Origin: a virus
Taxonomy: Duplodnaviria > Heunggongvirae > Uroviricota > Caudoviricetes
Virus record (IMG/VR): IMGVR_UViG_2734482772_000007
Span: 1 to 18,093 of that record
Direction: 5' to 3' (one strand)
DNA: 18,093 nucleotides
The notes beneath the pieces were generated by a model that did no database searches, was not told where the DNA came from, and saw nothing but the letters and a program-made list of their open reading frames with translations. This document shows, piece by piece, positions 2,812-17,423 of this stretch. Both the position numbers and the translations under genes were made by a program. Within the stretch, counting starts at the first letter, position 1, and each line of letters starts with the position of its first letter.

Positions 2812-3441
2812 TTACTCACCTCCTTTGATGCGAATGCCAGCGGCGCGTGGCACATTAACTTCCACGATTCGTACTGTTGGTTTGTACATCTCAATCGCTG
2901 TCAGCCAGTCAGCTCCTGTCATGCGCTTTTCCGCATCGCCATTAGTCCACTGAACTGGTACACCAATAGCCTTCATCGCGATTTCTATTTCCCCGGCAAT
3001 GGCGCTTTTTCCGCAACCAGTAAAACCAGAAACAACGACAAGAACTTCGCCTTTGGCTGGTTTTATTTCCCGTGCTTCCAGTTCTGCTATGCGCTTCTCT
3101 GCGGCTTCCAGCTTGGCTTCTGCATCTTTGGCTCGCATCTGCCAGTTGATAGCGATGTCGATAACGCTGTTAGCACAACTGGACTCATTCTCTTCGGCAG
3201 CTTTAGCTTCAGAAAGCTCATCAAGCAGTCCAAGAACAACAGTTGGCGTGGCGAGCGTGATAAAACGCATATTGCTCATATGCTCTTCATCGCTAACATC
3301 ATCGCCAGCCTCGACCGCTGCCATGTGCTGAACATAGCCGCTATCACAGGTATTCCAGATTGCCCCTGCCTCGTGCCCCCATTCACCATGTAGCGCTTTT
3401 TCTGCCGCCTCACGCAGTGCCTGATAGTTAATTTTGCTCAC
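2812..3441 (-). CDS. Ead/Ea22-like family protein (about 209 aa) with a C-terminal P-loop-like motif
   Basis: From GTG at 3441 (AGGAGG + 6 nt): MSKINYQALREAAEKA... and FITLATPTVVLGLLDELSEAKAAEE, followed by a coiled-coil-like acidic segment, resemble Ea22-like prophage proteins as I recall them. GFTGCGKS fits the Walker A pattern GxxGxGKS. Confidence 0.55.
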   Translation of the reverse strand: MSKINYQALREAAEKALHGEWGHEAGAIWNTCDSGYVQHMAAVEAGDDVSDEEHMSNMRFITLATPTVVLGLLDELSEAKAAEENESSCANSVIDIAINWQMRAKDAEAKLEAAEKRIAELEAREIKPAKGEVLVVVSGFTGCGKSAIAGEIEIAMKAIGVPVQWTNGDAEKRMTGADWLTAIEMYKPTVRIVEVNVPRAAGIRIKGGE

Positions 3442-3802
3442 GGGTTGCCTCCTGTTCATTTCCCTTGTTCAGTTTTCGTCTGCATACAGCGCAATCATCG
3501 GGGCTTTCGAAGCTGTCTGGTTCGCGTTCACCAGAGTACATCCATCTGCGGCAGATACTGGTTACTTCATTCTCGGCAAAATAATGATATTTTTTCGACC
3601 TGGCTGGTCTGCCCCATCCAGCTGTTCTCTCGCTCACATCACGTTTTAATCCCCCCGCGCGGACCTCCTTTAGCTCCAGAAGGGCCAGCCTCAGAAGCGT
3701 CCACCACTCACTGTCTGCAACCGGCTCCATATCAAGCGCTCTGTCAGCATCAGCAATCAGTCTGGTCAGGCTCTTATCGCTTATTCTGGTTTGCTGGCTC
3801 AC
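3428..3802 (-). CDS. hypothetical phage early protein (about 124 aa from GTG at 3802)
   Basis: AGGAGG + 6 nt + GTG start; the upstream ATG at 3820 has no SD of its own (the SD would lie inside it). C-terminal tail NEQEATREQN is encoded by the repeat cassette. Confidence 0.5.
   Translation of the reverse strand: MSQQTRISDKSLTRLIADADRALDMEPVADSEWWTLLRLALLELKEVRAGGLKRDVSERTAGWGRPARSKKYHYFAENEVTSICRRWMYSGEREPDSFESPDDCAVCRRKLNKGNEQEATREQN
3436..3461. repeat. 26-nt repeat copy B (Shine-Dalgarno plus start-codon cassette)
   Basis: GCTCACGGGTTGCCTCCTGTTCATTT; 25/26 identical to copy A at 3797-3822. On the - strand it reads AAATGAACAGGAGGCAACCCGTGAGC. Confidence 0.8.
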
Positions 3803-4088
3803 TGGTTGCCTCCTGTTCATTTTTTTCATTCCGGTACACAAGAATTACGACATCTCCCCGGGTAATTACGCGTGCGGGGTCGCCCTGTTGCATATGGTCA
3901 ATATCAAACGCGTCATTAAACGCATTTAGCGCCTTCGCGCGCTTGTCTTTACAACGACGTTTTTCACGCTGCTTAAAGAGCGAAGAAATCAACCACCTGA
4001 ATGACATAAAAGTGATATAGCCATAACCGATAAGCGCCAGACCTGTATTCATGGCTACATCTATCGTTATCGTTTTATCAATGACCAT
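3774..4088 (-). CDS. small membrane protein of unknown function (104 aa)
   Basis: AGGAGG + 7 nt + ATG at 4088; one hydrophobic helix (NTGLALIGYGYITFMSF) followed by a basic stretch; C-terminal NEQEATSE tail encoded by repeat copy A. Confidence 0.45.
   Translation of the reverse strand: MVIDKTITIDVAMNTGLALIGYGYITFMSFRWLISSLFKQREKRRCKDKRAKALNAFNDAFDIDHMQQGDPARVITRGDVVILVYRNEKNEQEATSEPANQNKR
3797..3822. repeat. 26-nt repeat copy A (Shine-Dalgarno plus start-codon cassette)
   Basis: GCTCACTGGTTGCCTCCTGTTCATTT; 25/26 identical to copy B at 3436-3461. Confidence 0.8.
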
Positions 4089-4308
4089 TGCCAGCCTCCT
4101 GTTTTGCCACTTTAAACGCCCGTAACATCGGGACCGTTTTACCGCTGATGACAGTGTTCATAACAATACCGATTCCACTGTGATGTAACGCTCCCGGTGC
4201 AACAAACAGCGCAGCATCTACAACTCTGAAGTAACGGTGGAACTCCCAGAACCAGCAAGAAATAGTGATAGTTGCGGTGACCCCATGGTCATAAAATTCA
4301 ATTTTCAT
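4078..4308 (-). CDS. hypothetical phage early protein (76 aa)
   Basis: ATGA start/stop overlap with the upstream gene (translational coupling); operon strand. Confidence 0.4.
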   Translation of the reverse strand: MKIEFYDHGVTATITISCWFWEFHRYFRVVDAALFVAPGALHHSGIGIVMNTVISGKTVPMLRAFKVAKQEAGNGH

Positions 4309-4532
4309 TTGCAGTTAAACCTTCTCTTATGACGTTCTACGGCAGCCTTCATATTGTTGTGCACGGTTCTTTTAATAATCCGACGTCCCACACTGTCATA
4401 GAACCGCCACCGGGAAGCCCCCGGATATCCGGGGAACTCAACCACCGCGCTACCGTCATTCATCCTGTATTCGTGGCGTTCTCCGGGCGGCTGGTATATT
4501 GCTTCGGTAACACTGAGAAGTTTAAAAGCCAT
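4305..4532 (-). CDS. hypothetical phage early protein (75 aa)
   Basis: GGAGG SD upstream of the ATG at 4532; begins 2 nt after the stop of the DUF2786-like gene. Confidence 0.45.
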   Translation of the reverse strand: MAFKLLSVTEAIYQPPGERHEYRMNDGSAVVEFPGYPGASRWRFYDSVGRRIIKRTVHNNMKAAVERHKRRFNCK

Positions 4533-4534
4533 CG

Positions 4535-5245
4535 TTACACCCTCCCCAGTGCCAGCGGTCTGTTGCTCTGACCATTAACCCCCTGATGCAGTCTGGCGTT
4601 TTTCCCGGCGATAAAACCGGCTGTAGCGGCAAACGCTGCACCTCGACACGCTTTAGCTGTGCGCATATCCCCGTCGCGTAGCCCCTTAGTGCTGTGCAGG
4701 TTCTTTCTGTAAAGCTCAAGGCGGCTTTTTTCTTCCGGGGAGACGTCATACACCGCAATGACATCACGGGCACCAAAGACCCAGCCTTCGCAGAACTGGT
4801 CGCCACGGGCTACCCGCGTGGACGGACCACAACGTTTGCAGTGTTTATCCTGATATTTCTTGCGCTCTGCCATCATCTGACGGGAAAGCACATCAAACGC
4901 GTAAGCCGCGATTTCCGGGCGGCTGTCAGAGCCATAAAAACGCACGTGACGTTTGAGTGAACCAGAAGCCCGGTATTCGCCGGATATGTAACACTCGACA
5001 CCGAAGGCTTTACAGACCAGGTCACACAGGATGTGCATATAACGCGGCGGTGTACTGGCATCACTCGGCGCACCCGCGCTGGCAGCTTCCTGAATGTCGA
5101 ACAATTCAGCGTCGTTTTCGCTGATGCCATGCTGGCGCATATAAGCCTGGGCTTTTGCAATAGCGTTAGCGGCTTCTTCCGGGCTTGATGTTCCTCTGGC
5201 AAGGCGTAACAGTTTTTTGATTTTGGCAATGTATTTATCTTTCAT
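4535..5245 (-). CDS. DUF2786-like phage protein with Cys-rich C-terminal half (236 aa)
   Basis: N-terminus MKDKYIAKIKKLLRLA...SPEEAANAIAKAQAYMRQHGISE resembles the DUF2786 N-terminal helix as I recall it; C-terminal half has CDLVC ... CKRCG ... FCEGW; GAGG SD upstream. Confidence 0.6.
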   Translation of the reverse strand: MKDKYIAKIKKLLRLARGTSSPEEAANAIAKAQAYMRQHGISENDAELFDIQEAASAGAPSDASTPPRYMHILCDLVCKAFGVECYISGEYRASGSLKRHVRFYGSDSRPEIAAYAFDVLSRQMMAERKKYQDKHCKRCGPSTRVARGDQFCEGWVFGARDVIAVYDVSPEEKSRLELYRKNLHSTKGLRDGDMRTAKACRGAAFAATAGFIAGKNARLHQGVNGQSNRPLALGRV

Positions 5246-5258
5246 GGTCGTCTGAACC

Positions 5259-5441
5259 TCAGCATCCTGAATTCTGAATTACGCAACTTCCGGCACGGCC
5301 TTCAGGAACGTGGGGAGTTCGTTCTGGCTGCGGCGCTGGATGAACATCTGCTGTCGATTGAGAACTGGTCGCAAGACGATTAAAACAAACGATTGTCAGA
5401 TTAATTTCGCGGGCGAATTTTTTTTGCTTAGCGATATTCAT
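5259..5441 (-). CDS. possible small protein (60 aa)
   Basis: GAGGAAG SD 8 nt upstream of the ATG at 5441; its stop overlaps the SD of the next gene. No motif support. Confidence 0.3.
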   Translation of the reverse strand: MNIAKQKKFAREINLTIVCFNRLATSSQSTADVHPAPQPERTPHVPEGRAGSCVIQNSGC

Positions 5442-5461
5442 AAATAAACTTCCTCAGATTC

Positions 5462-5498
5462 AGGCGTAAGCCAGCCCCGGCGGGTTTACGCCTGTTTT
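5462..5498 (+). terminator. GC-rich hairpin plus T-run, terminator-like in the + orientation
   Basis: AGGCGTAA (5462-5469) pairs with TTACGCCT (5486-5493) around a GC-rich loop, followed by TGTTTT (5494-5498). No + strand gene is evident upstream. Confidence 0.3.
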
Positions 5499-5523
5499 AA
5501 ATAACAATTAAAAACAAATTAAA

Positions 5524-5715
5524 TTAATGCGGTGCTTTCAGTGTTTCGACTTTTACGAAATAAGGCTCGACATTAATTTCAACCACACAACCACATTTAA
5601 AATCTCTGGCAGGTGAAACGGTTTTCACCACACGACCACCACGCAACGCCGGATGTGCAGTGTGCATGAAGCGAGTCCCTACCGGATACTGCTTATTAAA
5701 GTTCTTCGCATTCAT
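5524..5715 (-). CDS. hypothetical small phage protein (63 aa)
   Basis: ORF on the operon strand with a GGAAG-type SD; overlaps the 3' end of the ANR-like gene by about 20 nt. Confidence 0.4.
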   Translation of the reverse strand: MNAKNFNKQYPVGTRFMHTAHPALRGGRVVKTVSPARDFKCGCVVEINVEPYFVKVETLKAPH

Positions 5716-5929
5716 GGCGTGGCTTCCATCCTTTCAGGTGAGCATTAGCACAGAACTCGGCCCGGTGTTCCGCCCAGATGCGGCGCAGGGTGCTACACGG
5801 GCTTTGTGCTGCCTTACGCCACAGCTTTTCAGCCTCGGCATAATCGCCGCGTTGTTCTGCTCTGGACGCGCCCAGCGAATACGCCGCGCAACTATTTCCG
5901 GCTCTGTACTCTTTGATATCCTGATGCAT
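5696..5929 (-). CDS. ANR-family-like small regulator (77 aa from the ATG at 5929)
   Basis: RAEQRGDYAEAEKLWRKAA...WAEHRAEFC pattern resembles ANR-family prophage proteins as I recall them; the ATG at 5929 lies 1 nt after the upstream gene's stop. Confidence 0.5.
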   Translation of the reverse strand: MHQDIKEYRAGNSCAAYSLGASRAEQRGDYAEAEKLWRKAAQSPCSTLRRIWAEHRAEFCANAHLKGWKPRHECEEL

Positions 5930-5930
5930 G

Positions 5931-6575
5931 TTAAACCCCTGCAATATCAAGCGGGATTGCGCGGTATTCAGCAGAATCACCGACGCGCTCATACACGCGG
6001 ATATAGCTTTTGCTGCCAATTACCTGGACGGCTTCACCAATCAGTTTCATGGCGTTATCCCAGCGTTCCTCCGTAATATCGAGACGACGCAGAGCCAGAA
6101 CGCGCCCGGTGTTAATGTTACCTTCCTTGTCCGTGCTGAATGCTTCACTGATGATGGCTTTAATTTCAGGGCGCGCTCCTTCCGTCCAGTCAGCCAGACA
6201 GTCATCAATCAGTGCCTTCGCGGTCTGAATGCGTTCATCAAGCGCGATACGGTCCTGCATGGCGCGCTGAATCTTGTAACGCCCGTCAAAGCTGTAAAGT
6301 GTGATATTCCCTTTTTTACCGCCTTTCACAGCGCCGTATTTCTCCGCCGACAGGTCAATAAATGCCTGAATATCACCAAACGCACGCAGTTTCAGTTCAC
6401 GCAGTGAGGCAGAGGCAGCAATCACCATCTCCACAAGCTCACCGACCAGCTGCTCACGGTCGCGGTCAATATCTTTGATAAGACTTTCAGGCGTCATCAC
6501 ACCACGGGCATCAACCCAGTAGCCTTCCTGCACTTTATTTTTTGTATATTGCTTAACTTTATTTTCAGTCGTCAT
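5931..6575 (-). CDS. Mu-like early protein, DUF3164-like (214 aa)
   Basis: Size, position in the early operon and overall composition fit the DUF3164 family of Mu-like prophages; recalled from memory, not searched. Confidence 0.5.
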   Translation of the reverse strand: MTTENKVKQYTKNKVQEGYWVDARGVMTPESLIKDIDRDREQLVGELVEMVIAASASLRELKLRAFGDIQAFIDLSAEKYGAVKGGKKGNITLYSFDGRYKIQRAMQDRIALDERIQTAKALIDDCLADWTEGARPEIKAIISEAFSTDKEGNINTGRVLALRRLDITEERWDNAMKLIGEAVQVIGSKSYIRVYERVGDSAEYRAIPLDIAGV

Positions 6576-6832: not shown

Positions 6833-7072
6833 TCATTGCCATACGACGGTGCAGCCGTCGATACAGGACGTTTTAACCACGCGGCGCAGGCCGCTGAATG
6901 TCTGGATGATTTCCGTTACCGGCCATACAGGACCACCCACGGGCGGGCAGGCATAAACCACAGGTAAACGGTGATGTTGTCCCGTTACACGACCACCAGT
7001 GGTGTGGATGGCCACACGGGCACGGGAACGGACGGCGTTAATGGTCTGCTTGTCCATCGTCTTGTTCTCCAT
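6833..7072 (-). CDS. hypothetical small early protein (79 aa) in the position Mu uses for kil
   Basis: Start overlaps the B-like gene's stop by 1 nt (TAATG-type coupling); no sequence motif recognised. Confidence 0.45.
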   Translation of the reverse strand: MENKTMDKQTINAVRSRARVAIHTTGGRVTGQHHRLPVVYACPPVGGPVWPVTEIIQTFSGLRRVVKTSCIDGCTVVWQ

Positions 7073-7965
7073 CAGTGAATTAACATTTCTGCGAATTTAT
7101 CAATGGCCTGCACACTGACCGGCGCATCGCTGATATCACAAATCCGGTACACACCACGCGCCAGCTTGAACAGACGGCGGGCATTACCCAGCGAACGTGT
7201 ATAAAGCGCCTCGCTGATTTCCGGCTCTGCTGCTTCCGGCATCAACCCGGTAGCTATCTGGTTAAAATCTTCCTGCGACAACGTATCGCCCAGGTTAAGC
7301 GCCAGCGCCACGCGGCTGTATAACTGGGCGAACTCACCACGACGCCCCTTGAGGTTAATCAGAAGGCGAGGCATACCCGCCAGAACAACCCCGATACCCG
7401 CTTTGTCATGCAGACGGCGCAGAACCTCCAGTGCGCGATAGGGGAGCAGTTCAGCCTCGTCCACCATCAGCAGACGACCGGAATCACGCAGTTCGCGCAC
7501 ACAGGCATCTATCAGTTCGTGAATGTTGCCGCGAACCTTTACCCCCAGCTGGCGGCACAACTCCTCAAGCAGTGTTCTGGCTGTATAGCCCGGGTCAGCC
7601 TCAATCAGGACCGCATCCCGGTTTCTGGCGGCGTATTCACGCAGAATCATTGTTTTGCCAAGACCTGCTGCGCCATACAGCACACAGATTTCACATTCCA
7701 GGTGAGCGTAGGCCAGCACCTCCAGTCCTTTGGCAGTCATACTGGTGGTCACAAACTTTGCTTTAATACGGCGGCTGTTTTCCTTTTCCCGCTCACGGGT
7801 CACAAAGGCAGAAATGCGTTCTTCAATATCAGCCATATCGCCCTGATATTTACCCTGTAAATACTGGCTGATAACGGCGCTGCTACGCCCAATGGCACGG
7901 GCGACGTGGGTCTGCGTATAGCCGCGACGGGCCATTACGTCATTTAATTGCGTAATTAAACTCAT
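7072..7965 (-). CDS. MuB-like transposition ATPase / target DNA activator (297 aa)
   Basis: N-terminal HTH region (YTQTHVARAIGRSSAVISQYLQGKY), Walker A GAAGLGKT, Walker B-like LLMVDEAE; immediately downstream of the transposase, as in Mu. Confidence 0.85.
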   Translation of the reverse strand: MSLITQLNDVMARRGYTQTHVARAIGRSSAVISQYLQGKYQGDMADIEERISAFVTREREKENSRRIKAKFVTTSMTAKGLEVLAYAHLECEICVLYGAAGLGKTMILREYAARNRDAVLIEADPGYTARTLLEELCRQLGVKVRGNIHELIDACVRELRDSGRLLMVDEAELLPYRALEVLRRLHDKAGIGVVLAGMPRLLINLKGRRGEFAQLYSRVALALNLGDTLSQEDFNQIATGLMPEAAEPEISEALYTRSLGNARRLFKLARGVYRICDISDAPVSVQAIDKFAEMLIH

Positions 7966-7983: not shown

Positions 7984-10026
7984 TTAACGGTTGTTTGTGC
8001 CGTTTTTCTTTAAATTGCGCTCGCGCTCAGATGCGAATAAATAAAGTTCTTCTTTTTCCTTTTTCTCCGGGCGTTCCAGTCCATATCCCAGATTAAAGTC
8101 AGGCTTCTGCGTAATAGCCGGGGTAAGCTCGCGTTTCGCCTCTTCGATTTTCTGCGTGGCCCGTGCAATGCGGCCCCTGACGCGTTTCTCCAGTTTTTGT
8201 TCGATAACTGGTTTAGCGAAGGCATCAACCTTGTTACCGTTCCAGATGGCATCGCAGATATAAGAGCCATCAGCCCGCCGGACAATGACGCTGTTTGCAT
8301 CATGAATATCGTAACTGACCCTGACTTCATTCCCGTGCTCTGCGGCCAGCTCATATGAGTAATAAATATTGTTGAATAACTGAATTTCCCCGCGAAATGT
8401 TTTGCGCGTCACTTCCGGTCTGAACATTTCATGCAGCTCTTCCGGCGACAGGAAATCAATTTCAACATTCTGCTCTTTTATCAGTTTCCGGCGATACGCT
8501 GCCGGGCTGTAATATTCGCCATCCTCTTTGCGGGGAAGGCTGCTGTGTGGCCGGTTGTTATAGCGTCTGACTTCCAGTTCTATAGCTGCCATCAGTTGCT
8601 CAAAGGTGGGGACTTCATCCCTCGCCTTAACCTGCCGTTTTGTCAGTTCTTTCCCTTTGTGGGTGGCCTTAATGGCTGACTGCATAATCCGTTGCTGCAT
8701 CATTACGGTTTCCTTGTCTGCTCCCTTTGAGCAGTACGTCTGGAAACTCAGGGCCACATCCCGGGGAATTTCCTTGTTAAGCCTTTCAATCACCCCGCGC
8801 CCCTGTGGGTTACCTGGTATCCCCGTGTGATGTTCCACACCCAGCCGGGGCAGAATCCCGGTAATATCGGCATCAAGCACCCGGTTTTTTTCACCGCCCC
8901 CGTTATCGGAGTAATAAATCAGCGGTATCCCGTGCTGCGCCATGCCGTAACGTAACGCATCAGCAACGGCTATCACGTTCTCCGACAGGGACAGTGACCA
9001 GCCCACAACAAAGCGCTGCCCCGCATCCATAACCAGCGTCACTTCTGGCCGGAAAATATTGCCGGTCAGTGGGTTAAACGCGGTCATTTTCATACAGTGA
9101 CCATCCCCGACCCATACCGCATTAACCGGTAATGTGCTCCAGTCGCGCCGCACAAAGGGATTGAGCGAACGCCAGGCTGAACCGGTGGAGCGGAAACGCT
9201 CTTTAACAATCACCGGGACGCTGCTTAACACCCGTCTTACTGCGTGAACTGAAGGCAGTGCCGCCAGCATTCCCGCATCATTCGCGTGTTTTTCATGCCA
9301 CCAGGCTGAAAACTCACGATACGCATATTCAACAGTCGGGCGCTTCCATGAGCGATAGAACATAAAGAAATCGCTCAACCACCAGACCTGCTCCCACGGT
9401 GTTCCCTTATGATGACCGGGAGCCAGTAACGCCAGTAACTGATTGGCATCACCGCGCGCCATCACCCAGCTGGAGTACCAGCTATCCAGGCTGCCGGTGC
9501 TGACACCGGTTCGCTTTCCCTGACGTGCATTTGCAGTATTCGCTGCTTCGATAATGCGGTCAGGTAACGCCCCCATGCGCACACCATCAACGATGTGCTT
9601 TAAAGCGGCCTTCCTGGTCATTCCGGCATACTCGCGCAGCTTATGCACTTCAGTAGCCAGCAATATCCGCGCATCAGCGATGGCCTTTTGCTTGTCAGTC
9701 AGTGCCTGAACTTCACGTAATGCCAGTTCCGGGCATTTGACCATCACCTCCAGTTCATCGCGAACGGCGACGTTTTTAACTGCCTTCGCCTCAACTACGA
9801 CGGGCAGTTGCGCATCTTCCAGGACCTGATGGGTCAGGCGCTTACGTAAAACTTTCTGCGCTTCAGCGGGCAGGCAGTCGATGTGATACTCGAATGCTTT
9901 GGTGCCTTCACGCTTGCGCTTCCATTCCGGGTGCGTCTCTGTGATCCGATTGAGCGTCCAGCGCACCCCCTGAACTGTACCGGGCAAACCAGGAAGACCG
10001 GCCAGCTCATTGGCTGAATAAAACAT
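7984..10026 (-). CDS. MuA-like DDE transposase (680 aa)
   Basis: N-terminus (LAGLPGLPGT ... GTKAFEYHIDCLPAEAQ) resembles the MuA end/enhancer-binding domain; central region looks like an rve/DDE core (VWVGDGHCMK ... YYSDNGGGE); size and position after ner fit. Confidence 0.9.
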   Translation of the reverse strand: MFYSANELAGLPGLPGTVQGVRWTLNRITETHPEWKRKREGTKAFEYHIDCLPAEAQKVLRKRLTHQVLEDAQLPVVVEAKAVKNVAVRDELEVMVKCPELALREVQALTDKQKAIADARILLATEVHKLREYAGMTRKAALKHIVDGVRMGALPDRIIEAANTANARQGKRTGVSTGSLDSWYSSWVMARGDANQLLALLAPGHHKGTPWEQVWWLSDFFMFYRSWKRPTVEYAYREFSAWWHEKHANDAGMLAALPSVHAVRRVLSSVPVIVKERFRSTGSAWRSLNPFVRRDWSTLPVNAVWVGDGHCMKMTAFNPLTGNIFRPEVTLVMDAGQRFVVGWSLSLSENVIAVADALRYGMAQHGIPLIYYSDNGGGEKNRVLDADITGILPRLGVEHHTGIPGNPQGRGVIERLNKEIPRDVALSFQTYCSKGADKETVMMQQRIMQSAIKATHKGKELTKRQVKARDEVPTFEQLMAAIELEVRRYNNRPHSSLPRKEDGEYYSPAAYRRKLIKEQNVEIDFLSPEELHEMFRPEVTRKTFRGEIQLFNNIYYSYELAAEHGNEVRVSYDIHDANSVIVRRADGSYICDAIWNGNKVDAFAKPVIEQKLEKRVRGRIARATQKIEEAKRELTPAITQKPDFNLGYGLERPEKKEKEELYLFASERERNLKKNGTNNR

Positions 10027-10262
10027 TACGCCGCCTTACTGGCATACCGGCTTGGCCAGATCTCCGCAGGTTCCACACCAATAGCATCGGCTATGATGCG
10101 TTCATATTTAGGGCATGAGCGATACAGTGCATTTTTTAAAGAGTCTTTTTTTAGACCAGCGCGTTCAGAAAGTTCACGCAATGTAAAACCTTTGGTGTGC
10201 ACAGCGGCAACGATGTACTCGCGGTGCCAGTCTTTGTTCATTACTTCATTTCTAACCATCAT
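10026..10262 (-). CDS. ner: Ner-like DNA-binding protein (78 aa from ATG at 10262)
   Basis: MNKDWHREYIVAAVHTKGFTLRELSERAGL...NALYRSCPKYERIIADAIGVEPAEIWPSRY closely resembles the Mu Ner / E. coli Nlp family; 1-nt stop/start overlap with the transposase. The longer ORF to 10412 is rejected. Confidence 0.85.
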   Translation of the reverse strand: MMVRNEVMNKDWHREYIVAAVHTKGFTLRELSERAGLKKDSLKNALYRSCPKYERIIADAIGVEPAEIWPSRYASKAA

Positions 10263-10278
10263 TAGGTTACCCTTAAAA

Positions 10279-10321
10279 GTTATCCGTGCGGATAACACCG
10301 CCGTGTTATCCCTTCGGATAC
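10279..10321. promoter_or_regulatory. operator-like palindromes in the repressor-ner divergent control region
   Basis: GTTATCCG-TG-CGGATAAC (10279-10296, perfect 8-bp arms) and imperfect GTTATCC-CTTC-GGATAC (10305-10321); a further ATCCG at about 10330. Confidence 0.5.
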
Positions 10322-10444
10322 AAGTATTGATCCGTATGTAGCCCATGTAAAGCAAAAATAGCTCTTTCTTTGTATTTTCTTTTTGATTTTGGTCTTTATA
10401 TGGTTTTTGCAATTAAAATCAATCAGTTATAGAGGAAAGAAAAA

Positions 10445-11092
10445 ATGACTAGAAATGATGATGCTTTTTCTTTTGTCGACCAGGGAAAAGAAAGTTTCAG
10501 AGAGCGTTTAGTAAAGCTGATAGGTAACCGTAGTGTCAGAACTGCTGCGAGTGATTGGGGAATCCCCCCTTCAACCTTAAACAACTACATTCATAAAGGA
10601 ACAGAGCCTTCTTTTAAAATAGCTTGTCTTATCTCAGATAAAGAACAAGTGAGCTTAAATTGGCTCGCTTATGGTGAGGAACCCACCGCCAAAGAAGGTT
10701 CTCTATCAAATCAAACAGCGCAGCCTTCTCCCGATATTACAAACGAGCTAGTTAACGAGTTATTGAAAAGAGCGTCCACAGAAGATAAGGAACAACTGAT
10801 AAGTGCAATATGCGATATGGGCATTAAAGGAATCTTGGAACGCCTACAGCAACCCACCAGGCAAACTAAGCAAGCCGATAGCGAACTTGAGGAGCAAAGG
10901 AAGGCCATTCAAAGCCTGAACATCAGGCAATCGCTTAAAGACGCTGTTTGCATGGCATTAGCTGGCGATGAGGAAAATGACAAAGAGATTTTGCGCCGCG
11001 CCAAAGCCATTTTCTGTGCTGGAACACCAGGTGATCGCGTTCCCGTCACACCGGAGCAAGAAACTAAGCCTGTAAACAAGAAATCAGCATAA
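10445..11092 (+). CDS. prophage repressor, CI-type HTH (215 aa), in the position of Mu c
   Basis: Divergent from ner; HTH region VRTAASDWGIPPSTLNNYIHKGTEPS followed by VSLNWLAYGE, typical of phage CI-like repressors; GAGGAAAG SD; no S24 peptidase motifs seen. Confidence 0.7.
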   Translation: MTRNDDAFSFVDQGKESFRERLVKLIGNRSVRTAASDWGIPPSTLNNYIHKGTEPSFKIACLISDKEQVSLNWLAYGEEPTAKEGSLSNQTAQPSPDITNELVNELLKRASTEDKEQLISAICDMGIKGILERLQQPTRQTKQADSELEEQRKAIQSLNIRQSLKDAVCMALAGDEENDKEILRRAKAIFCAGTPGDRVPVTPEQETKPVNKKSA

Positions 11093-11251
11093 GCGCCTCG
11101 TTTTGGCGGGGCGTGTGCTGTTAGCTAATCAGCAATAACCACAACAAAACCGAACACAACAGATGAGAACAAATTGAGGAAAACGGGTAAGGATAAAACA
11201 CTTTTTTAAAAGCATTTAAAACCCGTTAAGTTTGTAGCAGAACCAGATCAA

Positions 11252-11406
11252 AAGCGCCCAGAAAAAAGCGCAAAAAAAAGCGTTTTTGGTCATTTCTCAC
11301 AAATCCGCCCAGAATCACACTAAATCACCATACCCCGCGCCACACAAGGCTTGCAGGTTCTACCAGGCTGCACGAACTCCGCCCAGAATTGATCACTACC
11401 CCACAC
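11252..11406. repeat. terminal direct repeats, candidate transposase-binding sites of the prophage end
   Basis: GCGCCCAGAA (11254-11263), TCCGCCCAGAATCAC (11304-11318) and TCCGCCCAGAATTGATCAC (11378-11396); the sequence ends ...CACACA at 11406, consistent with a 5'-TG terminus read on the - strand. Confidence 0.45.
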
Positions 11407-14400
11407 ATGGGCGGAAAACCGGCAGCGCGGCAGGGTGACATGACCCGCAAGGGACTGGATATTGTGCAGGGTTCAGCAGGGGTGCTGATAGGTGCGCCAA
11501 CCGGTGTGGCCTGCTCGGTGTGTCCCACAAAAAAGGACAGTCCGAACTATGGCAGCCCGGTGAACCCGCTACTCGGTGCGAAGGTTCTGCCTGTTGAAAC
11601 CGACCTGGCACTGCCCGGCCCGCTGCCGTTTATTCTTTTCCGCGCCTACAGCAGCTACCGGACCAGGACGCCCGCGCCAGTGGGCGTGTTTGGTCCCGGC
11701 TGGAAAGCGCCCTTCGATATCCGCTTACAGATACGCGATGAAGGCCTGATACTCAACGACAGCGGTGGCAGGAGCATTCACTTTGAGCCGTTGTTTCCCG
11801 GCGAGATAAGCTACAGCCGCAGCGAGTCGTTCTGGCTGGCAAGGGGCGGAGTGCTGAAACAACACAAAGGCCATCCGCTTGCGCGGCTCTGGCGGGCGTT
11901 GCCGGAAGCGGTCCGTCTGAGTCCACACACCTATATGATGGCTGTCAGCACAACCGGGCAGTGGCTGATACTCGGCTGGCCGGAGCGGGTGCCGGGGGCG
12001 GACGAGGTGCTGCCGCCTCCGCCGCCCGCATACCGGGTGCTGACGGGGGTGGTGGACGGCTTCGGGCGGACGCTGGCCTTTCATCGGGCAGCTAAGGGTG
12101 ACGTGGCGGGCGCGGTGACGGGGGTGACGGACGGCGCGGGCCGCCGTTTTCACCTGGCGCTGACCACGCAGGCGCAGCGGGCGGAAGCCTTCCGTAAACA
12201 GCGCGCCACGTCTTTATCTTCCCCGGCCAGTCCCCGTTCTGTTTCCTCTTCTCAGGTTTTCCCCGACACGCTGCCCGCCGGTACAGAGTACGGTGTCGAT
12301 AACGGTATCCGGCTGGAGGCGGTGTGGCTGACACACGACCCGGCATACCCGGATGAACAGCCGACTGCGCCGCTGGCGCGCTACACGTACACGGCCGGTG
12401 GTGAACTGCGGGCGGTGTATGACCGCAGCGGAACGCAGGTGCGCGGGTTTACTTATGATGCGGAGCACGCCGGGCGGATGGTGGCGCACCATTATGCAGG
12501 GAGACCGGAGAGCCGCTACCGGTATGATGATACCGGGCGGGTGACGGAGCAGGTCAACCCGGAGGGGCTGGACTATCGCTTTGAGTACGGGCAGGACCGT
12601 GTGACCATCACGGACAGCCTGAACCGGCGGGAGGTGCTGTACACGGAGGGCGAAGGCGGCCTGAAGCGTGTGGTGAAGAAGGAGCATGCGGACGGCAGCA
12701 TCACCCGCAGCGAGTATGATGAGGCGGGGAGGCTGAAGGCGCAGACGGATGCGGCGGGGCGGCGGACGGAGTACCGGCTGCATATGGCGTCGGGCGCGGT
12801 GACAGCGGTGACGGGGCCGGACGGCAGGACGGTGCGGTATGGCTATAACAGCCAGCGGCAGGTGACGTCAGTGACGTACCCGGACGGGCTTCGCAGCAGC
12901 CGGGAGTATGATGAGAAGGGAAGGCTGGCGGCGGAGACCTCACGCAGCGGTGAGACGACGAGTTACAGCTATGATGACCCGGCGAGTGAGCTGCCGACAG
13001 GGATACAGGACGCGACGGGCAGTACAAAACAGATGGCATGGAGCCGTTACGGTCAACTGCTGGCCTTTACGGACTGCTCGGGGTACACGACGCGGTATGA
13101 GTACGACCGGTACGGTCAACAAATCGCCGTTCACCGGGAAGAAGGCATCAGCACTTACAGCAGTTATAACCCGCGTGGGCAAATGGTCAGTCAGAAGGAT
13201 GCGCAGGGGCGTGAAACCCGTTATGAGTACAGCGCCGCAGGAGACCTGACAGCAACGGTATCACCGGACGGTAAACGCAGCACCACCGAATATGATAAAC
13301 GTGGGCGTCCGGTGAGTGTGACGGAAGGTGGACTGACGCGCAGCATGGGGTATGACGCCGCCGGGCGCATCACCGTGCTGACTAACGAGAACGGCAGCCA
13401 GTCCACGTTCCGGTATGACCCGGTGGACAGGCTGACGGAGCAGCGCGGCTTTGACGGCCGGACGCAACGTTACCAGTATGACCTGACCGGAAAACTCACG
13501 CAGAGTGAAGACGAGGGGCTTATCACCCTCTGGCACTACGATGCGTCGGACCGCATCACGCACCGGACGGTGAACGGCGACCCGGCAGAGCAGTGGCAGT
13601 ATGATGAGCACGGGTGGTTAACCACCCTCAGCCATACCAGTGAAGGCCACCGCGTGTCGGTCCACTACGGGTACGACGATAAGGGCCGCCTGACGGGCGA
13701 ACGGCAGACGGTGGAGAACCCGGAGACGGGGGAACTGCTCTGGCAGCATGAGACGAAACACGCCTACAACGAACAGGGGCTGGCAAACCGCTTTCAGGCA
13801 GACAGCCTGCCGCCGGTGGAGTGGCTGACCTACGGCAGCGGTTACCTGGCGGGCATGAAGCTGGGCGGGACGCCGCTGGTCGAGTATACGCGGGACAGGC
13901 TGCACCGTGAGACGGTGCGCAGCTTCGGCAGCAGGGCAGGCAGTAATGCCGCATATGAACTGACCAGCACATACACCCCCGCAGGCCAGTTACAGAGCCA
14001 GCACCTGAACAGCCTGGTGTATGACCGTGACTACGGGTGGAATGACAACGGCGACCTGGTGCGCATCAGCGGTCCGCGACAGACGCGGGAATACGGCTAC
14101 AGTGCCACGGGCAGGCTGGAGAGCGTGCGCACCCTCGCACCGGACCTGGACATCCGCATCCCGTATGCCACCGACCCGGCGGGAAACCGCCTGCCGGACC
14201 CGGAGCTACACCCGGACAGCACGCTCACGGCGTGGCCGGATAACCGCATCGCAGAGGATGCGCACTATGTTTACCACTATGATGAATACGGCAGACTGAC
14301 GGAGAAGACGGACCGCATCCCGGCGGGTGTGATACGGACGGACGACGAGCGGACCCACCACTACCACTACGACAGCCAGCACCGCCTGGTGTTCCACACG

Positions 14401-15654
14401 CGGATACAGCATGGCGAGCCACTGGTCGAGAGCCGCTACCTCTACGACCCGCTGGGACGGCGAATGGCGAAACGGGTATGGCGGCGGGAGCGTGACCTGA
14501 CGGGGTGGATGTCGCTGTCGCGTAAACCGGAGGAGACATGGTACGGCTGGGACGGCGACAGGCTGACGACGGTACAGACCGACACCACGCGTATCCAGAC
14601 GGTATACCAGCCGGGGAGCTTCGCGCCGCTCATCCGCATCGAAACAGACAACGGTGAACGGGAGAAAGCGCAGTGCCGCAGCCTGGCGGAGAAGTTACAG
14701 CAGGAAGGGAGCGAAGACGGTCACGGTGTGGTGTTCCCGGCTGAACTGGTGGGGCTGCTGGACAGGCTGGAGGGGGAAATCCGGGCAAACTGCGTGAGCA
14801 GTGAAAGCCGCCAGTGGCTTGCGCAGTGCGGGCTGACGGTGGAGCGGCTGGCGGCACAGATAGAGCCGGTTTATTTGCCTGAGCGAAAAATACATCTTTA
14901 TCACTGTGACCACCGGGGCCTGCCGCTGGCGCTTATCAGTGAAGACGGCAATACGGCGTGGAGCGCGGAATATGATGAATGGGGCAACCAGCTTAATGAG
15001 GAGAACCCGCATCACCTGCACCAGCCGTACCGGCTGCCGGGGCAGCAGTATGATAAGGAGTCGGGGCTGTACTATAACCGTCACCGGTACTACGATCCGT
15101 TGCAGGGGCGGTATATCACCCCGGACCCGATTGGGTTGAGAGGTGGATGGAATATGTATCAGTATCCGTTGAATCCCATACAAGTGATAGACCCAATGGG
15201 GTTAGATGCGATTGAGAATATGACATCAGGTGGACTAATTTATGCCGTATCTGGTGTACCTGGATTGATTGCTGCAAACAGCATTACTAACAGTGCTTAC
15301 CAGTTCGGTTATGATATGGATGCTATTGTTGGCGGAGCTCATAATGGGGCCGCCGATGCAATGAGACATTGTTACTTGATGTGTCGAATGACTAAGACAT
15401 TTGGATCAACAATAGCTGACGTGATAGGTAAAAATCATGAGGCGGCAGGGGATAGACAAGGTCAGCCAGCTAAAGAAAGAATCATGGATCTTAAAAATAA
15501 CACTGTCGGTATTGCTTGTGGCGATTTTTCTGCCAAATGTAGCGATGCATGTATTGAAAAATATAACACTGGGCAACTCTTCGGGTTAGATGGTATAAAA
15601 GCAGATAATCCAATAAAAGCAAAGCAAGGGAGTTCAGATGCTTCAAATTATTAG
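11407..15654 (+). CDS. Rhs-family polymorphic toxin with N-terminal PAAR-like region (1415 aa from ATG at 11407)
   Basis: N-terminus [13 protein letters not shown]...[12 protein letters not shown]; many YD/RHS repeats ([22 protein letters not shown], etc.); DPIGL (15124-15138) and DPMGL (15190-15204) preceding a variable C-terminus. The track's TTG at 11389 is rejected in favour of the ATG. Confidence 0.9.
15205..15651 (+). other. Rhs variable C-terminal toxin domain (about 149 aa), family unassigned
   Basis: Begins right after DPMGL; AT-rich compared with the Rhs core; contains [23 protein letters not shown] (15361-15399), KNHEAAGD and [12 protein letters not shown]; five Cys in total. Confidence 0.6.
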
Positions 15655-16120
15655 AGGCAAACTTGTCATTTTTTTAATTACCCTTTGTTTATTTGTTGTT
15701 TACCTTGGGTTTGATAACAATTCAAATTCTGACATCGTATTTTATGGACATAAAACACCAAAGAGCGTTGAGATATATCTTTCTGAAAAAAATATTATTT
15801 ATAAAATAATTAATGACCAAAAAATTAGTAGAGGGAATGGTCATTTTATAAGTATAATGGTTAATAATTACAGGACGCACTGTGGAGTGGTTGATATAAA
15901 TCTTAATTTTTTCAATGATATTCTTTATAGCGTGCGATTAAAAAACATTAGTAAACTGGAGAATATGGAGTTCTGCGCTAAAAAACAACGGGTGTATTTT
16001 AGTGATAAAAACAAGAAGGCTAGTTATAAAATAATTAATTATGGAGACTATTACGATGTTGATTATTATGATAACAATTTGAAAAATGAAGTTTTTGACT
16101 GGATTGGTAAATGGTCATAA
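15638..16120 (+). CDS. putative Rhs immunity protein (160 aa), N-terminal membrane anchor
   Basis: ATG at 15638 overlaps the rhs 3' end by 17 nt, with AAGGGAG SD; N-terminus [20 protein letters not shown] is hydrophobic; very AT-rich, N/K/Y/D-rich. Confidence 0.7.
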
Positions 16121-16300: not shown

Positions 16301-17423
16301 GTGAGTATTCAAAGTTTGCTTGATTATATTTCAGTGATCCCTGATATACGACAACAAGGAAAGGTTAAACATAAATTATCTGCTATTTTGTTTCTCACCG
16401 TATGTGCAGTAATTGCAGGTGCCGATGAGTGGCAGGAAATTGAAGATTTTGGACATGAAAGACTTGAATGGCTAAAGAAATATGGTGATTTTGATAATGG
16501 CATTCCGGTCGATGACACCATTGCACGCGTTGTGAGTAACATTGACAGTTTGGCCTTTGAAAAGATGTTTATTGAATGGATGCAGGAGTGCCATGAAATC
16601 ACTGATGGTGAAATTATAGCAATAGATGGAAAGACCATAAGAGGCTCCTTTGATAAGGGAAAAAGAAAAGGAGCAATCCATATGGTGAGTGCATTCTCGA
16701 ACGAAAATGGTGTTGTACTGGGGCAGGTGAAAACGGAAGCCAAAAGTAATGAGATTACAGCCATTCCAGAGTTGCTTAACCTACTGTATTTAAAGAAAAA
16801 TTTGATAACCATTGATGCTATGGGCTGTCAGAAAGATATCGCTTCGAAGATCAAAGATAAAAAAGCAGATTATCTTCTGGCAGTAAAAGGCAATCAGGGG
16901 AAATTACATCATGCATTCGAGGAAAAATTTCCTGTAAATGTGTTTTCTAATTATAAAGGCGATTCGTTTAGTACGCAGGAGATAAGTCATGGAAGAAAAG
17001 AAACACGTTTGCATATTGTCAGTAACGTAACGCCTGAACTTTTGTGATTTTGAATTCGAATGGAAGGGATTAAAAAAGCTTTGTGTAGCATTGTCATTCA
17101 GGCAGAAGAAAGAAGATAAATCAGCAGAAGGTGTAAGCATCCGATATTATATTTCATCAAAGGATATGGATGCTAAAGAATTTGCACATGCTATCAGAGC
17201 GCACTGGCTGATCGAGCACAGTCTTCATTGGGTGTTAGATGTAAAAATGAATGAAGATGCCAGCCGGATAAGAAGAGGAAACGCAGCCTAAATAATATCT
17301 GGAATAAAGAAGATGGCACTGAATTTATTAAGGGATTGCAAAGACATTAAGGGTGAAGAGGAAAAGAAAGAAGGCTGCGTTAAACACAGGGAAAGATCAT
17401 CAGAAGTTCACTTTTTGTACTAA
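16301..17423 (+). pseudogene. ISAs1-family (H-repeat) transposase, diverged copy, disrupted
   Basis: 16301-17047 encodes an N-terminal part colinear with the second copy ([41 protein letters not shown]). A frameshift at about 17045 moves into the frame encoding [18 protein letters not shown]...RYYISS...[14 protein letters not shown]...RRGNAA, an in-frame TAA sits at 17289-17291, and the tail continues to a stop at 17421-17423. Confidence 0.7.

Follow-up and report, generated by a model that had tools for sequence, protein, structure and literature searches.

The two palindromes that precede ner in the early control region of a transposable, Mu-like E. coli prophage most likely serve as the operator of the Ner-like protein and not of the CI-type prophage repressor. 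The window, that is, the whole 18,093-nt stretch of DNA analysed, contains the early (left) end of this prophage, and its divergent early control region (10262-10445) is limited by the ATG of ner on the minus strand (10262) and the ATG of the repressor gene (10445). The repressor (215 aa, 10445-11092) is encoded on the plus strand, and the minus strand encodes a Ner-like regulator, the analogue of Cro (78 aa, 10026-10262), a MuA-type transposase (680 aa, 7984-10026) and a MuB-like AAA+ protein (7072-7965). The early region downstream of B (2812-6575), with all genes likewise on the minus strand, codes for DUF3164, DUF2786/DUF7168 and Ead/Ea22-like proteins. A 1.3-kb control segment was found in 49 of 5,426 complete E. 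coli genomes, and the EPEC strain E2348/69 carries a copy of this 1.3-kb control region with 98.7% identity; a literature search on the Mu-like prophage of E2348/69 found no papers.

Relatives were collected by using a transposase alignment to scan a single genome from each species, which gave 69 loci; in 45 to 49 of them, the repressor, the control region, ner and the transposase could be parsed. A first contig scan with a repressor alignment, for which a poor, degenerate pattern was chosen, had confirmed no loci. By recognition helix, the repressors were assigned to the classes R1 (STLNNY, the class of the window), R2 (SExSIRKY), R3 (TLKNYY) and some Vibrio types. Motif positions, protein families, conservation and co-variation were computed, and we infer from the sequences which protein binds which site in the control region. 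A rank correlation of pairwise distances, computed for 28 loci, suffered from noise and from confounding by shared ancestry and gave weak support.

The first palindrome, GTTATCCG-TG-CGGATAAC (10279-10296), is perfect, with 8-nt arms and 2 nt between them, and the second, GTTATCCC-TT-CGGATAC (10305-10321), is an imperfect copy, 26 nt apart and 88% identical to the first over 16 nt. Both are present where the initial annotation had placed a perfect palindrome with 8-nt arms and an imperfect copy. Combined, they form a single inverted repeat with 18-nt arms (10281-10298 and 10303-10320) that are 83% complementary. The pattern TTATCC-N4-GGATAA, with up to 2 mismatches allowed, has three matches in the 18-kb window, whereas 0.51 would be expected, and two of the three are these palindromes (10279-10321). 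The palindromes are also conserved: position and core sequence are kept in 25 aligned relatives. In the proposed Ner operator, the imperfect palindrome, which overlaps the predicted start of the early promoter Pe, would provide the half-sites h1 and h2 and the perfect palindrome the half-sites h3 and h4.

A consensus scan of positions 10150-10550 revealed Pe as the sole sigma-70-like site (10323-10351, minus strand), with the predicted -35 element TTTACA (10351-10346), a 17-nt spacer and the -10 element AATACT (10328-10323); a promoter for the repressor gene on the plus strand was not found by this simple consensus scan of 10150-10550. GATCAATACT and TTTACA recur in most of the Enterobacterales relatives, similar elements are seen in some relatives from Vibrio and Aeromonas, and Pe of Mu likewise carries GCTTTACA. 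The palindrome block is located 17-59 nt upstream of ner, just downstream of the -10 element and in the ner leader. Since the only promoter-like site is Pe, on the minus strand, the palindromes would span about +1 to +45 of the early transcript, counted from the inferred promoter start.

The Ner-like protein matches PF13693 with 90.1 bits (cut-off, 25), as expected for a member of the Ner/EnrR/SfsB (Nlp) family, is 43% identical to Mu Ner and matches the structures of EnrR (7f9h) and Mu Ner (1neq) in the PDB. In the EnrR-DNA crystal, Arg47, Asn51 and Arg55 read the bases, and two monomers are bound to a palindromic TATC...GATA duplex (PMC9023278). When the Ner of the window is aligned to EnrR, the N and R of its recognition helix fall on Asn51 and Arg55, whereas the base-reading Arg47 is replaced by Asp, giving D/N/R at the three positions; TATC and GATA are 6 nt apart here, compared to 4 nt in the EnrR site. 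The N and R are present in all tabulated Ner helices but two or three distant ones, and position 47 varies (D, S, G, T) along with the type of half-site. An Enterovibrio locus (L064) combines a Mu-like APTTL Ner helix with Mu-like TTAGTT/AACTAA repeats.

If the palindromes are read by Ner, they should stay with ner when the repressor is exchanged. In 19 pairs of loci whose Ner proteins are at least 90% identical and whose repressor N-domains are at most 60% identical, the palindrome block was 80 to 100% identical (mean, 88%), whereas the repressor-proximal half reached only 53 to 74%, against a background of 54%. These Ner-sharing pairs with differing repressors include the window with L002 and L003, L020 with L022, and L015 with L016. 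L002 and L003 are E. coli prophages that have the Ner, the palindromes and the transposase N-terminus of the window together with another repressor domain, and they diverge from the window from about 10336 rightward. The initial annotation had read the palindromes as operators of the CI-type repressor, bound as a dimer; in that position, the repressor would stop the early transcript shortly after it begins. The symmetry would suit a dimeric HTH protein, and the recognition helix of the R1 repressors is nearly invariant while most R1 loci carry GGATAAC, so the comparison of the window with L002 alone leaves a repressor operator standing. However, the GATAA core is found next to ner with three unlike repressor helices, those of R1 (STLNNY), R2 (SExSIRKY) and R3 (TLKNYY), and conversely the R1 loci of the Sodalis/Pantoea clade (STLNNY, STINNY or STLHNY), which have another Ner helix, carry GGTAAG/CTTACC in its place. 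This change of half-sites is confined to essentially one clade and thus counts as a single event. The palindrome block is unchanged when the repressor domain is exchanged, and the repeats that are specific for a repressor class occur elsewhere, over the -35 element of Pe. With a block that lies in the ner leader, tracks Ner and has a core indifferent to the repressor helix, we consider it unlikely that the CI-type repressor is the protein for which the palindromes are made. Because the palindromes are next to ner and the AAAG repeats next to the repressor gene, linkage by itself might account for their co-inheritance; a reciprocal pair, with the same repressor (at least 75% identity) and a different Ner, was not found among the relatives compared.

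A Ner operator at this place would match the arrangement in Mu and D108. Mu has an inverted repeat with 18-nt arms at 1023-1064, 35-76 nt upstream of ner (start, 1099), and the inverted repeat of D108 (996-1025; ner start, 1050) is perfect, consists of 11-nt arms separated by 8 nt and lies 25-54 nt upstream of the gene. We take these two inverted repeats to be the footprinted Ner operators. For D108, a Ner operator of 61 bp is cited in the reference list of PMC10434027. The block of the window is placed between the predicted Pe and ner, is symmetric and, among the relatives, co-varies with Ner. In the central inverted repeat, symmetric co-variation was found in 25 cells, compared to 10.9 in shuffles; when the two palindromes were taken as separate hairpins or dimer sites, co-variation was not above that in shuffles. 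The symmetric co-variation of the central repeat fits a dimer site for a protein of changed specificity and an RNA hairpin equally. Located in the leader at the 5' end of the early transcript, such a hairpin might affect the stability of the transcript, its processing or the translation of ner, and the hairpin is predicted to be stable (dG, -22.8 kcal/mol; z, -3.5; equalled by one of 200 shuffles), with changes on both sides commoner than in shuffles. On the other hand, the sequence of the half-sites itself is conserved, which a hairpin does not need, about 22% of the cells are unpaired, the three direct GGATAAC repeats of L013 cannot form a hairpin at all, and the window gave no match to an Rfam family at gathering thresholds. 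An RNA element is therefore an improbable explanation for the repeat, although a hairpin would not exclude a Ner operator in the same DNA. That the palindromes belong to the transposition enhancer and are bound by the I-alpha domain of the transposase is very improbable: I-alpha HTH, ner and palindromes are indeed exchanged together between the window and L004, but the enhancer of Mu, to which I-alpha binds, is O1-O2 on the repressor side (PMC3562280), the types of I-alpha helix agree with the repressor (adjusted Rand index [ARI], 0.58) and not with Ner (-0.07 to 0.34), and loci of the L019 and L007 types have similar I-alpha helices and different half-sites.

The initial annotation had described the repressor as a CI-type protein without the winged helix that Mu c shares with MuA, and this was borne out. 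Residues 20-80 (10502-10684), an Xre/CI-type HTH, match PF07022 (Phage_CI_repr) with 28.1 bits (cut-off, 22), and the full length matches phrog_3037 (E = 6e-58). A profile of 47 related repressor N-termini matched 434 repressor, P22 C2, 186 CI and TP901-1 CI (E = 7e-5 to 8e-3), whereas hhalign of this profile with the profile of the transposase N-termini gave a probability of 0.2%. The DNA-binding domain PF02316 of Mu was detected neither in this repressor nor in the repressors of the 47 relatives, and BLASTP comparison with Mu c, MuA and the transposase of the same prophage gave chance matches only. The single repressor sequence also gave only chance matches in the PDB, and NCBIfam has no model for it. 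The DNA-binding domain of the repressor is not homologous to the winged helix of Mu c and MuA. The N-terminal HTH resembles that of 434 repressor, P22 C2, 186 CI, TP901-1 CI and P2 C; the repressor differs from this group in a C-terminal half without detectable similarity and without a LexA-like autocleavage domain, and in its location in a transposable phage. Neither an S24 peptidase nor any other Pfam domain was found in residues 90-215, so that the features of a lambda CI/LexA-type autocleaving repressor are absent, whereas several of the related Vibrio phage repressors are annotated with an S24 peptidase.

The swapped repressor is no peculiarity of this prophage. CI-type repressors (PF07022) are present in 35 of the 47 relatives, and the same family occurs in Yersinia phages classified as Muvirus and in Mu-like phages of Vibrio and Shewanella; a CI-type repressor at the left end is the usual state in this branch of Mu relatives. 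In Yersinia vB_YpM_5 and vB_YpM_6, Vibrio 1.028.O and Shewanella MuM16-1 and MuM16-2, the same-family repressor at the left end is followed by a Ner homologue and the transposase. Compared to the window, vB_YpM_5 has a Ner with 74% identity, a repressor with 35% identity and a conserved first palindrome. Descriptions of operators in these Yersinia, Vibrio and Shewanella phages were not found in the literature searched, which treats "C-repressor and Ner" by analogy with Mu only. In one distant relative, Chitinibacter sp. S2-10 (L047), the repressor upstream of ner begins with MQIPGLPASRQNVSVRAEREGW and looks like the Mu c/I-alpha type; thus, both types of repressor occur among the relatives of this transposase.

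A better candidate for the operator of the CI-type repressor is the inverted repeat AAAGCAAA-N7-CTTTCTTT (AAAG-N15-CTTT; 10349-10371), which lies over the -35 element of Pe and might be a repressor operator, an element of the enhancer, or both. R1 loci share it in the form AAAGAAAG-N7-TTT(G/C)CTTT, again AAAG-N15-CTTT over the -35 element, and with exact spacing and at a fixed distance from ner it was present in 18 of 25 R1 loci, in none of nine R2 loci and in one of eight R3 loci. The hexamer AAGAAA/TTTCTT was found 2.05 times per 100 nt of repressor-proximal DNA in R1, 0.12 times in R2 and 0.61 times in R3, and different inverted repeats bracket the -35 element in R2 and R3 loci. Two loci with Ner type d illustrate the same dependence on the repressor: L010, with an R1 repressor, has AAAAGAAA, a copy of the R1 motif without the exact repeat, whereas the R1 motif is absent from L031, with an R3 repressor. 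Further copies of the motif are an extra TTTTCTTTTT at 10375-10384, one at the ribosome-binding site (10436-10445), and two within the first codons of the repressor ORF (10466-10495), 12 nt apart, namely, TTTTCTTTT (10466-10474; F8-S9-F10) and AAAGAAAGT (10487-10495; K15-E16-S17). At these two positions, the codons are frozen in 23 distinct relatives (TTT, 35 of 35; GAA, 22 of 22; AGY for Ser, 16 of 16; AAA, 21 of 23), and amino acid replacements still preserve the nucleotides, while all the other conserved columns of the repressor (for example, N, Y, E and R) use mixed synonymous codons. The frozen codons suggest that the first 50 nt of the repressor gene contain an element that acts in cis as a nucleotide sequence. 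Between the two clusters of motifs, AATCAATCAGTTA (10417-10429, plus strand) is an exact match to the IHF consensus WATCAANNNNTTR, and 12 of the 25 R1 relatives have an exact match at the same place, 12-15 nt away from the start of the repressor. The AAAG motifs are candidate binding sites for the repressor, for I-alpha of the transposase, or for both.

The transposase has the three parts expected for the MuA type, an I-alpha-like N-terminus, a DDE core and the Mu transposase C-terminal (II-beta) domain. It matches PF02316 (residues 7-140; E = 1.8e-10), Mu-transpos_C (PF09299; 62 bits), rve (below the cut-off) and, over residues 1-659, phrog_310 (E = 7e-196), and BLASTP aligns residues 13-53 to residues 5-44 of Mu c with 39% identity (E = 2e-4). 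The MuA-like N-terminus that had been proposed for this protein is thus confirmed. Residues 1 to about 35 (10026 to about 9922) form the HTH of the I-alpha-like winged-helix domain; the N-terminal alignment profile matches 1tns and 1g4d, in part by construction, as MuA and Mu c were rows of the alignment.

Competition for the operator/enhancer arises in Mu because the repressor and the transposase have a DNA-binding domain in common. How the two proteins could share sites when the repressor is of another type was a question raised by the initial annotation, and the comparison of relatives gives some evidence on it. In seven pairs with transposase bodies of 76 to 97% identity and repressors of different classes, the transposase identity collapses only in the first 30 to 45 residues, the I-alpha HTH, and resumes at the conserved stretch R(K/R)R.G(T/S)KAFEYHIDCLP; the I-alpha HTH and the DNA-binding class of the repressor are thus exchanged jointly in at least seven recombinants. 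When HTH types and repressor domains were clustered, the ARI between the two was 0.58 to 0.62 at 3, 4 and 6 clusters and 0.39 at 5; the values for comparison were -0.07 to 0.34 for Ner and 0.06 to 0.21 for transposase body against repressor. A permutation test at 4 clusters gave a P value of at most 2e-4, uncorrected for phylogeny. All eight clustered R2 loci (nine by motif) have the same HTH type, and this R2/HN association spans three transposase body clusters and two Ner clusters. Only the R2/HN split was robust; a split of the I-alpha helices into QG and KG types that had been drawn by eye was not recovered by unsupervised clustering. L010 and L031 share a Ner type, as do L064 and L067/68, and in both cases the differences on the two sides of it are coordinated.

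Much of this co-variation between I-alpha and repressor follows from the contiguity of the cassette. Nevertheless, the exchange of the I-alpha HTH along with the DNA-binding class of the repressor suggests that operator and enhancer still overlap despite the unrelated folds, and the co-variation is as expected if the enhancer stays embedded in the operator segment of the repressor, by analogy with Mu. We tentatively propose, at somewhat less than even confidence, that in this large branch of Mu relatives the Xre/CI domain of the repressor and the non-homologous I-alpha HTH of the transposase behave as one exchangeable specificity cassette. If so, the operators would continue to serve as the transposition enhancer as well, matched specificities for the same segment of about 150 bp would be found in two unrelated folds, and part of this shared segment would lie inside the coding sequence of the repressor itself. 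A natural chimera was observed in E. coli OkiPb01701 (L004), whose transposase is 97 to 98% identical to that of the window from residue 33 onward, with residues 1-32 (9930-10026 of the window), ner, the control region and the repressor N-domain belonging to a different immunity type.

The following model would accommodate these data. Pe is predicted to fire leftward (in window coordinates) and to transcribe ner and the genes for the transposase and the MuB-like protein. Within about +1 to +45 of the early transcript, the palindromes would provide four half-sites of the GATAAC type (10279-10321). As in Mu and D108, dimers of Ner would occupy them and reduce the activity of Pe, and probably that of the repressor promoter also, after the onset of lytic growth. 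The CI-type repressor would act further to the right, at AAAG-N15-CTTT over the -35 element (10349-10371), with further candidate sites at 10375-10384, 10436-10445, 10466-10474 and 10487-10495, up to and inside its own gene. The IHF-like site (10417-10429) between the clusters would then resemble the O2-IHF-O1 layout of Mu, and the repressor-proximal segment probably serves as the enhancer for the N-terminal winged helix of the transposase.

Gene order and divergent layout match the order c - O1/IHF/O2 - Pe - Ner operator - ner - A - B of Mu and D108, with which the prophage also shares a Ner homologue, a transposase with an I-alpha-like N-terminus and an inverted repeat directly upstream of ner. 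Further resemblances are the CTTTACA-type -35 element of Pe and an IHF-consensus site with a cluster of short T-rich motifs on each side. The immunity cassette extends into the first transposase codons; such a reach was reportedly described for Mu versus D108 by Mizuuchi et al. in 1986 (cited in PMC3820752). Differences are the Xre/CI-type HTH of the repressor, whereas Mu has a winged helix shared with its transposase, the low identity of the transposase to MuA (about 21%) and the GATAAC type of the operator half-sites. For the most part, the finding is an ordinary one: a variant of the lysis/lysogeny switch of the Mu type with a common type of repressor and ordinary palindromes; the parts worth an experiment are the co-variation of the cassette and the frozen motifs in the repressor ORF. 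The comparative data raise the possibility that the coupling of repressor and transposase known from Mu survives when the repressor domain is replaced with one of unrelated fold. Natural chimeras (the window, the L002/L003 type and the L004 type) are ready-made swaps of specificity, and the copy in E2348/69 makes the idea directly testable.

The left end of the prophage (11250-11405) contains three direct repeats CCGCCCAGAA(T) and a terminus ...CCCCACA that ends at about 11405. It was placed there because homology to three other E. coli copies, which are inserted elsewhere, stops at this position. The repeats AAnnCCGCCCAGAA(T), at 11250-11264, 11301-11315 and 11375-11389 with spacings of 51 and 74 nt, are inside the prophage end and are candidate L3, L2 and L1 sites for end binding by the transposase. 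The terminus (11399-11409) is located 2 nt before the ATG of a gene for an Rhs-family toxin (11407-15654; 1,415 aa) with RHS repeats, an RHS core and a DUF6973 C-terminus; therefore, the insertion parts rhs from its upstream region. Downstream of rhs and a small ORF (15638-16120), an ORF at 16301-17047 with DDE_Tnp_1_assoc and DDE_Tnp_1 domains encodes an IS transposase that is apparently truncated.
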